Below, piece by piece: positions 9,510-56,147 of a DNA stretch of 59,223 nucleotides. Under the pieces are notes generated by a model that saw only the letters and a list, made by a program, of their open reading frames with translations, was not told the DNA's origin and searched no databases. The position numbers and the translations under genes are program-made. The stretch lies in assembly GCA_025276375.1 (NCBI GenBank), contig GCA_025276375.1_3645.1, one strand, 5' to 3'. This DNA comes from a phage. Each line of letters opens with the position of its first letter. Within the stretch, counting starts at the first letter, position 1.

Positions 9510-10550
9510 ATGTCAAAACCTAGTTTTCCATTAGAGATTTGGGCAGAGGAGGATCAGGTTCTGCCTAACACCCACAGACAGAACAGGCTACGCCCGATTG
9601 ATGATTTGTGGAGAAAAGGTTGGGATCTTGGTCAAAAGCCCTCATGTGAAGAACTTAACTATATTTTCAATATGCTCGGAACTTGGGCAAAATACATTGC
9701 TGACGAGCAGATCCCCGCTCAAGAAGGCCGTTATCTGGTACGTGATAATAACTTGAGTGATCTTTTGAACATCCCTGTTGCCCGTAGAAACCTTGGGATT
9801 ATTACCAAGGAAGAGGCAGACGCCAGGTATGTAAAAGTTACAGGTGATACAATGACAGGCCCATTGGGTTTGCAACGTATCAACTTTAAAGCTGCCGAGA
9901 CAGATAAGGCTTGGATAGAGACAACTATTGGCCCAGATAAGACAACTCTCGACTTCGGGTTAAGTGATAATATTGGGTCGTTTGATGATGGTGGTACATC
10001 TACAGTAGATGCGTTTCGTTGGAGATTCCAGCCAACTCAGCCGGATATTAATCCAGAGTTCACTTTGATGTACCTTAACGCGATCACGGCTAACCGTGCG
10101 CTGTTGAAAGTGGTCGGCAATGTTGAAGTTGTCGATAACATGAGGTGCAATAACCTTACTATCAGCAATACAGCAACATTCACCAACTGTAATGTGGCTA
10201 GTCAGTTGACGGCTGGGTCAGTATATGTTAATGGTGGTGCAAGTTGTGACAGCATGGTTGTAAGAAGCCAGCACTGTGTTGTCGGTAACAGAAATGTGGT
10301 GCGATCTGTGAACGGAGTTACGGCTAACGGTAACGGTGATGTAACAATCACTATCCCGCAGACAGGTGTGCAAGACATCAGAATCGGTGCAAGACTTGTT
10401 GACGGCGTTTCTGAATCCCCAATTCGCAACGGCTACGTTGTCACAGGCTGGCATTTCGGTGACAAAAAAGAGATGCGTGGTTCAACCTACTGGGCAGGAC
10501 CTTTACAAAAACTTGTAAATGGTCAATGGATCACTGTTAATTATGCATAG
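9510..10550 (+). CDS. side tail fiber protein, copy 1
   Basis: AGGAG SD; paralog of 11565-12608 (shared N-terminus 'P[SV][FI]PL[ED]IWA' and C-terminus 'VNGQWITVNYA'); immediately upstream of Tfa homolog. Confidence 0.6.
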   Translation: MSKPSFPLEIWAEEDQVLPNTHRQNRLRPIDDLWRKGWDLGQKPSCEELNYIFNMLGTWAKYIADEQIPAQEGRYLVRDNNLSDLLNIPVARRNLGIITKEEADARYVKVTGDTMTGPLGLQRINFKAAETDKAWIETTIGPDKTTLDFGLSDNIGSFDDGGTSTVDAFRWRFQPTQPDINPEFTLMYLNAITANRALLKVVGNVEVVDNMRCNNLTISNTATFTNCNVASQLTAGSVYVNGGASCDSMVVRSQHCVVGNRNVVRSVNGVTANGNGDVTITIPQTGVQDIRIGARLVDGVSESPIRNGYVVTGWHFGDKKEMRGSTYWAGPLQKLVNGQWITVNYA

Positions 10551-54675: not shown

Positions 54676-54987
54676 TACTTGAAAATTCCTGGCATATCAA
54701 GTGTAAGGGGGATTTCTAAAATGGATTTCCTCCTTTTGATATTTCACCGGGCTGGATATTTTAAAATTCTTAGAAAATCAGAAAATGGATCGAAAACTAA
54801 AATGGATTTTTCAGAGTAGGCGCGACAAGCTGAATAACTCATCCTATCGTTTGCACCATATTCCAGGCCACCATTATAGATTTCCCACACATGCTAACCT
54901 CCCTCTACTAGAACTTCCTCCACTTGCCCTTAACCTTCTATGGTAACAATCTAACCACTATCTTGAAGTTGCGGTGCAGCTTTCCAA

Positions 54988-55116
54988 GTACTCGATCTAC
55001 TTTTCATTTCATGGCTTGGATTTTCTGAAAATTTTTCTCGATAAATTTCTCAGTACTCGATCTGTTTTTCGTTTTCTGAATCGGATTTTCTGGAAATCGT
55101 TCCGGATCTCGACCTG
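54988..55116 (+). repeat. tandem direct repeat, two ~64-bp units (AGTACTCGATCT...GGATTTTCTG...)
   Basis: unit 1 at 54988-55051, unit 2 at 55052-55116, roughly 75 percent identical by eye. Confidence 0.6.
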
Positions 55117-55277
55117 AAATTTTTGGGGACGAAATCGATTTTTCGTTTTCAGAAATGGATTTTTAAAATTTCTATATGGGAATATTTTATGGTATACTGT
55201 TTTATAGGAAATTGTTACGGAGGGTAATTAGCATGCTAATTAAATTTATTAAATGCGAGGAGTTCTCATTTAGAATT

Positions 55278-55296
55278 TTGAATGATAATCATTCTC
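55278..55296. promoter_or_regulatory. Fur-box-like palindrome, site 1 (TTGAATGATAATCATTCTC)
   Basis: 15/19 match to GATAATGATAATCATTATC; core AATGAT-A-ATCATT is a perfect inverted repeat. Confidence 0.45.
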
Positions 55297-55413
55297 GTTT
55301 GCAGAATAACGGGCAGGCCCGGTGATTGTCTCCCGGCCCCTGTTGCCCCGGCTTGTTATTATAGTATCACACAGGACAAAGAAAGCAAGGATTTTTTGCA
55401 TAAATTTTTAAAT

Positions 55414-55432
55414 GATAATGATAACCGTTCTC
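55414..55432. promoter_or_regulatory. Fur-box-like palindrome, site 2 (GATAATGATAACCGTTCTC)
   Basis: 16/19 match to the Fur-box consensus; followed by sequence related to that after site 1. Confidence 0.4.
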
Positions 55433-55869
55433 ATTTTATGCAGCGCCCATCCCCGGTGGTTGTCTCCCCCGTCACCGGTGCCTGCCGTCCTTTCGATAGG
55501 TATATTGTGCCACCTGGCGGGGCCGCTGTCAACACTTTTCAAAAAATTTTTCTAACCTGATGCGCTAACCGCTGCAACCTGGCGGGGCCAGCCTGGCAGT
55601 ACCTAACTGACCAGGTAGGAGAGAATGAAGGCTTGTAAACCTGGTGGGCCTATGCTATAGGACAGGTAACAATTGAAGAGGAGGTACAAAAATAAAAGGT
55701 AATATGATCCCCTGGAAAATGTAGCTATTAATGACGCTGAGGCTATCGCCCTGGTAGAAAAGGCCATGGCGGGAGCGTTGGAACATAAAGAAGAGTACGA
55801 AAAAATGATGGTTAACCTGGCAGGGCGGCGGCAGGTGGATTCTATCATAAAAATAATTTAAAATAATTG

Positions 55870-55897
55870 TTGACAACCGGGGGAGTCCTGCTATTCT
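55870..55897 (+). promoter_or_regulatory. sigma70-like promoter TTGACA-N16-TATTCT
   Basis: -35 at 55870-55875; upstream of gene 55950. Confidence 0.45.
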
Positions 55898-55949
55898 TAC
55901 CCTACAAGGTGAACAACACCGCACTAACTAGTAAAGAGGATAAAAAATC

Positions 55950-56147
55950 ATGAACGCATACGGAATCAAAGTACGTCGCAACACTCGCCAGGCGGTCACC
56001 GATCAAGTGGTTTGCCTGGTGGATGTAACCATCAACAACGGGCAAGGCCTTTATAAATTTCGTCGCGGTCATAGCTATACCCTGCAACAGCTTAATCGTT
56101 GCGCCCTGACAAAAGGTCAGATCAATCACTGGTTTAATAAAAAATAA
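55950..56147 (+). CDS. hypothetical early protein (65 aa)
   Basis: AAAGAGGA SD. Confidence 0.45.
   Translation: MNAYGIKVRRNTRQAVTDQVVCLVDVTINNGQGLYKFRRGHSYTLQQLNRCALTKGQINHWFNKK

Follow-up and report, generated by a model that had tools for sequence, protein, structure and literature searches.

Fur-box-like palindromes between leftward promoters and iteron-like repeats in a conserved non-coding region of rV5-like phages

Introduction

A conserved non-coding module in an rV5-like Escherichia coli phage carries palindromes that, in their sequence, match Fur boxes at the level of known sites, and we tentatively propose, with somewhat less than even confidence, that they are operators through which host Fur controls whether leftward transcription enters a probable replication origin. 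It is a common view that lytic phages disregard the transcription factors of their host, RNA polymerase excepted. Laboratory media and the infected host or gut differ sharply in iron status. The consensus-grade quality of the sites suggests that these phages may read or manipulate host iron status, and if the Fur array is what it appears to be, this would hold for broad-host-range therapy and biocontrol phages, namely relatives of rV5, PVP-SE1, CR3, and phAPEC8.

Temperate phages are known to carry cargo under Fur control, the stx1 promoter being one case. The sitABCD genes found on lambdoid phages are likewise Fur-regulated prophage cargo (PMC6969025). As is proposed for the present case, a phage genome is thereby wired into the host Fur regulon, but stx1 and sitABCD each have a single box at a prophage cargo operon, whereas here an array lies in the non-coding core region of lytic phages and is conserved across subfamilies. 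Fur control of prophage cargo is already known; an array of this kind, conserved in the non-coding core DNA of lytic phages, would be a further form of it. In the literature that we searched, we found no description of Fur boxes in rV5-like phages, of the box sequence in a phage context, or of the hairpin core described below, and nothing relevant on Vequintavirinae transcriptomes.

Results and discussion

A gene-poor region in a Vequintavirus genome

The DNA analyzed here is a single stretch of 59,223 nucleotides, referred to as the window. Over the 1.4 kb around the boxes, its identity to many E. coli myoviruses of the rV5 type, for example, MaxTheCat, ECML-10, and FFH2, is 93-97%, and by sequence the 59-kb window is that of a lytic rV5-like E. 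coli phage of the genus Vequintavirus. The boxes are found in an ORF-poor stretch of ~1.25 kb (54680-55950) flanked by small genes on the plus strand; the equivalent stretch of MaxTheCat lies ~8 kb downstream of the genes for a helicase, a primase/helicase, and the DNA polymerase. Within Vequintavirus, positions 55245-55530 are almost invariant, and the flanks vary. In the rV5 genome paper, the region is only labelled "non-coding", and the origin could not be located by skew analysis (PMC3606486). As an origin marker, GC skew tracks gene orientation only. A second stretch of 2.5 kb without annotated genes occurs in MaxTheCat (90,052-92,583; locus L383, 4953-7484), at the convergence of plus- and minus-strand gene blocks.

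The non-coding character assumed in the original prediction was borne out by closer inspection of the one ORF that covers the boxes. This 92-aa ORF (55282-55560, plus strand) is annotated in the records of several relatives, and its single family match is phrog_14993, a PHROG of unknown function. It shrinks to 7 aa in MiataMamis and in Mydovirus, and spans 18-194 aa elsewhere. Because its ATG lies inside a Fur palindrome and it is cut to 7 codons in a close relative, we judge it spurious. A 48-aa minus-strand ORF (54744-54890) was rejected for lack of conservation. Two tRNAs, tRNA-Met and tRNA-Ile, that the record of Klebsiella phage K45PH128C2 places on the Fur box and hairpin module (L005, 1511-1664) were also rejected, as ARAGORN finds none there, or anywhere in the window or in seven homologous loci. 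Spurious gene and tRNA annotations in many records are corrected accordingly. To the right of the module, at 55694-55861, a 60-aa gene of the relatives (bas57_0100 in MaxTheCat) is broken in the window: its start reads ATA in place of ATG, the C-run at 55711-55714 is one C short, and a 31-aa ORF remains (55766-55861).

Palindromes matching Fur boxes

Both sites of the original prediction were recovered when we re-read the sequence. Site 1, TTGAATGATAATCATTCTC (55278-55296), agrees with the E. coli Fur 19-mer at 15/19 positions, and site 2, GATAATGATAACCGTTCTC (55414-55432), at 16/19; the latter is the sole match with three or fewer mismatches in the window, where 0.03 would be expected. The perfect core attributed to site 1 is present as the exact 13-mer AATGATAATCATT at 55281-55293, despite the four mismatches to the 19-mer. 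A better register for the palindromes is 9-1-9, in which 16/18 positions match the E. coli consensus; the Fur boxes of Xanthomonas, Shewanella, and Bacillus have been published in this form (PMC1790865). Fur box 1 is then the palindrome AATGATAAT-C-ATTCTCGTT at 55281-55299, within a 25-mer at 55278-55302, and Fur box 2 (55411-55435) consists of two overlapping 9-1-9 sites, 2a (55411-55429) and 2b (55417-55435), offset by 6 bp. A degenerate box 0, AATGCGAGG-A-GTTCTCATT (55252-55270), is centered 29 bp from box 1.

For scoring, we built a Fur matrix from 22 Acinetobacter baumannii Fur sites (PMC3055841), which are predicted sites rather than footprinted E. coli ones and themselves score 18.3-31.3 bits. 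Box 1 reaches 24.0 bits (55278-55302), the best match in the window, with 12.8 bits in a shifted register; the two sites of box 2 score 16.6 and 15.1 bits, and box 0, which occupies the position of the second box in the 29-bp arrays of other genera, just 1.7 bits. Outside these sites, no position of the window scores above 10.9, and the maxima of 200 random windows average 10.4 bits (sd 3.0). Box 1 falls within the range of the training sites and above the average random-window maximum, and the Fur assignment came through the matrix scoring that had been proposed as its check. The four best matches of the window all lie within 170 bp (55272-55438), and the three best in the complete 135-kb genome of MaxTheCat are all at the equivalent locus. 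These phages encode no Fur homolog of their own.

Duplicated units and their leftward promoters

The boxes had been described as heading a duplicated unit of ~65 nt. The duplication itself is well founded: a local alignment of 55281-55334 with 55417-55468 has 41 of 57 columns identical and scores 36, compared with 14.9 +/- 2.1 for shuffles, the copies are 134-136 nt apart, and a repeat search recovers them as families D6 and D11. The length, however, is closer to ~54 nt. Read on the minus strand, unit 1 is a leader with a possible hairpin at 55300-55354, comprising the core GAGACAATCACC (55332->55321) and CCTGCCCG; this core and the 3' arm are common to several genera. Unit 2, its duplicate, spans 55436-55497 on the same strand with the core GAGACAACCACC (55466->55455), and has a homolog in contig L181. 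In the related phages that share the module, the boxes lie 30 nt from a conserved core, GGTGWTTGTCTC, and the invariant part of the element reads, in RNA sense, GAGACAAWCACC-N-CCUGCCYG.

Each unit is preceded on the minus strand by a predicted sigma-70 promoter. P_L1 (55388->55361) has the -35 element TTGCTT (55388->55383), a 16-nt spacer, and TG-n-TACTAT (-10 at 55366->55361), with a predicted start site near 55354; P_L2 (55532->55504) reads TTGACA-17-CACAAT with a TG extension, matches 10/12 positions plus TG in the promoter scan, and would start near 55497. P_L1 is weak in the window (score 7.5), and its homologs in other genera (TTGCAA-17-TATATT, TTGATC-16-TATTAT, and similar) score 9-10 at the same distance; P_L2 scores 11. 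When a fixed 63-nt interval was scanned at 24 instances of the element, an opposite-strand sigma-70 promoter scoring at least 9 was present in 67%, as against 4% of random windows; the -10 of these promoters ends 25-37 nt ahead of the core. The only plus-strand promoter-like site that box 1 overlaps (55278-55307) consists of TTGAAT (55278-55283), an 18-nt spacer, and CAGAAT (55302-55307), and scores 7.5; its -10 lacks the critical -11 A in other genera (CTGAAT, CGGAAT), as in Mydovirus and phiTE, and reading of the sequences revealed no plus-strand promoter at the homologs of the GC-rich segment that lack a Fur box.

The original prediction that the boxes head rightward small transcripts is not supported by these observations: with conserved promoters on the opposite strand and only a weak, unconserved site on the plus strand, the boxes trail the units rather than head them. 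Read leftward, the order is promoter, GC-rich segment, Fur boxes, AT-rich patch, and iterons. The box centers lie at least ~70 nt past the predicted start sites, away from the classical position of Fur over -35 and -10, and no overlap with the -35/-10 of a regulated promoter was found beyond that single weak, unconserved site.

A sequence of the form ACCTGG(C/T)(G/A)GGGC(C/G) occurs four times in the window (55512-55526, 55577-55591, 55638-55651, and 55815-55829); one copy forms the spacer of P_L2, and the corresponding promoter of phage UPEC06 has a counterpart. The poly-A tract that separates P_L2 from the next segment (55542-55547) varies from 6 to 14 A among close relatives.

A hairpin in the GC-rich segment is plausible. 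Folding energies are ordinary overall (z = -0.1 to -2.7). The proposed folding of the plus-strand segments as RNA gave unremarkable values (z = -0.1 and -1.1), and the minus strand of unit 2 gave z = -2.25. A possible long-range helix would pair AUAGCGGG with CCCGCUAU in phiTE; in the window, the pairing segments would be AUAAC and GUUAU. An inner helix is possible as well. Helix A has 17 GU pairs and 16 mismatches on the minus strand compared with 9 and 24 on the plus strand; 87.5% of its cells are paired, with double changes at two pairs, which is not better than shuffles (87/500). No Rfam family matches the window at E <= 10 or seven homologous loci at E <= 1, neither strand of 55250-55560 contains an intrinsic terminator, and searching bacterial genomes with the hairpin core yielded matches at chance level only. 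Capture of the segment from the host was discarded as an origin, there being no similar DNA in 5,426 E. coli genomes. In phiTE, an annotated "terminator" falls within the conserved GC-rich segment, just upstream of the core; the pseudo-ToxI of this phage is a separate feature, at 106.7 kb, whereas the homolog of the module is at 39.6 kb.

AT-rich DNA and iteron-like repeats

Beyond the boxes in the leftward direction, an AT-rich patch (55160-55250; ~70-80% A+T in a 40-nt composition profile) separates them from iteron-like direct repeats at 54713-55163, which comprise three ~65-nt units at 54978-55163 and a AAATGGATTT family starting at 54713, and which the repeat search recovers as families D1-D4. 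Homologous iterons occupy the same position in SSE121, CR3, and Avunavirus, Enterobacter phage EC152 also has iterons at that position, and two unrelated-looking contigs (L229 and L232) preserve the order of promoter, core, and iterons. At least three direct repeats beside an AT-rich stretch, the arrangement typical of iteron origins, are thus present. DnaA sites and IHF sites or cores were absent from the region, and no conserved initiator gene adjoins the iterons, the neighbors differing among genera (unknown function, HNH, NADAR). From this analysis the region is probably a phage replication origin or an origin-like regulatory hub, and it offers, for these phages, a first concrete candidate for an origin or control region. 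The deposited genomes of EC152 (L259, 1-330) and Campylobacter phage C2 (at the record end) start or end inside the iteron and Fur-box region; these may be assembly breaks at the repeats rather than physical ends.

Conservation across genera

Box 1 and the GC-rich segment share 70-87% DNA identity with Phapecoctavirus, Mydovirus, Certrevirus, Seunavirus, Avunavirus, and the Aeromonas genus Plateaulakevirus, and the surrounding DNA in these six genera is unrelated. The module is common to Vequintavirinae, Stephanstirmvirinae, and an Aeromonas phage. Its conserved blocks are the Fur box, GAAT(A/G)(A/G)C(G/A)GGCA, and GGTG(A/T)TTGTCTC, followed to the right by a -10-like block and a TTGCAA block; on the opposite strand, these two right-hand blocks make up a sigma-70 promoter such as TTGCAA-17-TATATT. 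Box 1 is kept in all homologous loci. The number of boxes per phage ranges from one to four, with a strict 29-bp period for up to three, and at each main-locus homolog that bears boxes the first begins 30 nt after the core does.

The consensus of 31 distinct phage boxes is AAATGA(G/T)AAT(C/G)ATT(C/A)TCATTT, and the Xanthomonas Fur consensus is the same sequence (PMC1790865). Positions that vary among the phage boxes are the low-information positions of the Fur motif (r = 0.89 for frequencies), a comparison that is partly circular in that the boxes were picked with the same matrix. The motif is unchanged in phages of Escherichia, Klebsiella, Pectobacterium, Salmonella, Cronobacter, and Aeromonas, and it also occurs in environmental contigs of very different G+C content; its constancy across phages of six host genera fits a host factor with conserved specificity.

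In other genera, a different module of ~110 nt (CCGGCGATCCACCTTCCGACC...GTTAGCCCCGCCTTTTCGCCGTGGGGTGGCG), itself highly conserved, replaces unit 2 at its position; it is found at L003 1660-1830, L006 1640-1790, L007 1640-1790, L008, L010, and L256-L261. It has its own strong promoter on the P_L strand, for example, TTGACA-17-TATACT in phAPEC8, and matches no Rfam family.

Alternative explanations

Several other readings of the palindromes have to be weighed. The boxes might have no role in cis and act as decoys, sequestering Fur as the genome is amplified to hundreds of copies with three or four sites each, and so derepressing host iron uptake to feed the iron-dependent ribonucleotide reductases of the phage. 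The Fur titration assay works with multicopy single boxes, and the consensus-grade, arrayed boxes, the absence of a conserved promoter overlapped by them, the class I and class III ribonucleotide reductases encoded by the phage, and similar arrays in many unrelated viral contigs all agree with such a role. However, titration would leave the invariant 30-nt distance from the core and the 29-bp period across genera unexplained, Vequintavirus keeps just one strong site and one composite site, and arithmetic on copy numbers is not evidence; we consider it unlikely that the boxes serve as decoys alone. We also find it rather unlikely that the palindromes only look like Fur boxes and are in fact sites for a phage-encoded origin-binding or regulatory protein. 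A model for this would be the lambda ori, with its four 19-bp inverted-repeat iterons, and the arrays of two to four palindromes, as many as three at a regular 29-bp period, adjoin an AT-rich patch and other iterons in non-coding DNA near replication genes. Yet phage-specific iterons normally diverge together with their protein, whereas this motif stays constant over phages of six host genera and over environmental contigs that differ widely in G+C, and equals published bacterial Fur consensus sequences; in addition, no conserved neighboring gene for a DNA-binding protein was found.

The earlier model, in which a rightward Fur-repressed promoter at each box produces a small RNA or leader from the plus strand of the GC-rich segment, appears improbable. 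It can draw on the TTGAAT-18-CAGAAT site under box 1, whose TTGAAT hexamer recurs in most Vequintavirinae, and on a few G-U pairs that favor the plus strand, for example, in the phiTE inner helix, as read from the sequence. Against it stand promoter scores of 6-8, which are at background level, the loss of the essential -11 A from the -10 in Mydovirus and phiTE, the unremarkable plus-strand folds (z = -0.1 and -1.1), the lack of a terminator or an Rfam match, and the lack of a visible plus-strand promoter in box-less homologs. That the region encodes the 92-aa protein and that the motifs are incidental is hardly credible: although the ORF is annotated in several records and matches phrog_14993, it has 7 codons in a 92%-identical relative and unrelated lengths elsewhere, its start codon belongs to the palindrome, the stretch is near-invariant at every codon position, and the poly-A tract near its 3' end varies in length.

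A proposed model for Fur control of leftward transcription

The reading that we favor, that host Fur acts on this module in cis, draws on the fixed 30-nt and 29-bp spacings, which argue for a cis-acting nucleoprotein arrangement. On the minus strand, each tandem unit would provide a sigma-70 promoter, a G-rich leader capable of forming a hairpin, and a Fur box 30 nt past the start of the core. In an iron-replete cell, Fe2+-Fur bound to the boxes would block or occlude leftward transcription short of the AT-rich patch and the iterons; under iron scarcity, Fur would leave, and transcription from P_L1 and P_L2 could run through. Such a roadblock would couple host iron status to activation or priming of the origin, or to antisense control of the region.

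Comparison with known systems helps to place this model. The boxes share with those of gamma-proteobacteria (E. coli GATAATGATAATCATTATC; 9-1-9 form AATGAgAATcATTctCATT) the same palindrome and the same tolerated variable positions, and an overlapping or tandem arrangement of sites is common to both. In contrast to them, the phage boxes belong to a virulent phage, overlap no conserved -35/-10, lie downstream of promoters and beside iterons, and have no iron-related gene nearby. RyhB and the tandem PrrF1/PrrF2 likewise combine a Fur box with a short non-coding unit, structured in their case and possibly so here, and duplicated in tandem in PrrF1/PrrF2 as in the window, but they have no sequence or Rfam relationship to the phage module, which lacks an intrinsic terminator and carries its box at the 3' side of the unit, whereas the RyhB and PrrF boxes lie over the promoter. 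Finally, the lambda ori with pR, T4 oriE and oriF, and ColE1 RNA II also have a promoter directed into AT-rich and iteron DNA and a G-rich initial transcript, and the combination of a leftward promoter, an AT-rich patch, and iterons makes the phage locus resemble transcription-activated or transcription-primed origins; it differs from these in having no conserved adjacent initiator gene, and its origin function is one that we infer. To our knowledge, there is no precedent for a host metal sensor placed between a promoter and iterons.

A wider proposal, which we regard as doubtful in its full extent, is that several virulent phage families share an ordered Fur array between origin-directed promoters and iterons that serves as an iron checkpoint for replication or early transcription, that the array may double as a Fur sponge upon genome amplification, and that the promoter-hairpin element with the core GAGACAAWCACC represents an undescribed phage non-coding RNA or DNA signal.

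Further copies of the element and of the boxes

Each genome has two or three copies of the promoter-hairpin element, which occurs in jumbo-phage contigs as well. In MaxTheCat, an extra copy with the core GAGACAATCACC is found at 88.76 kb (88,700-88,900; L382-L384). This third copy, 9.6 kb further along the Vequintavirus genome, lacks a Fur box and is oriented in the same sense as the genes. The core also occurs without a Fur box in contigs of 183 and 328 kb, and, as in the MaxTheCat copy, a same-strand promoter precedes it each time. Further copies of the element are seen in L238, L244, and L255, and CR3-like phages have a second copy, whose single Fur box follows the core at 60 nt.

The exact box GAATGA(G/T)AATCATTCTC is found in at least 120 viral contigs (IMG/VR loci L011-L130, for example, L040, L091, L094, L103, and L111). 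Among the matches listed, 28 of 120 loci have two to five boxes within 300 bp, often as tandem arrays in the non-coding DNA of unrelated-looking phages. A general rule that phage Fur boxes sit at promoters was dismissed, since strong promoters are not enriched near 69 boxes in unrelated viral contigs. In one unrelated viral contig (L017, ~10165-10245), two perfect DnaA boxes (TTATCCACA) lie immediately upstream of a Fur box, a further case of a phage Fur box in an origin-like or promoter setting.
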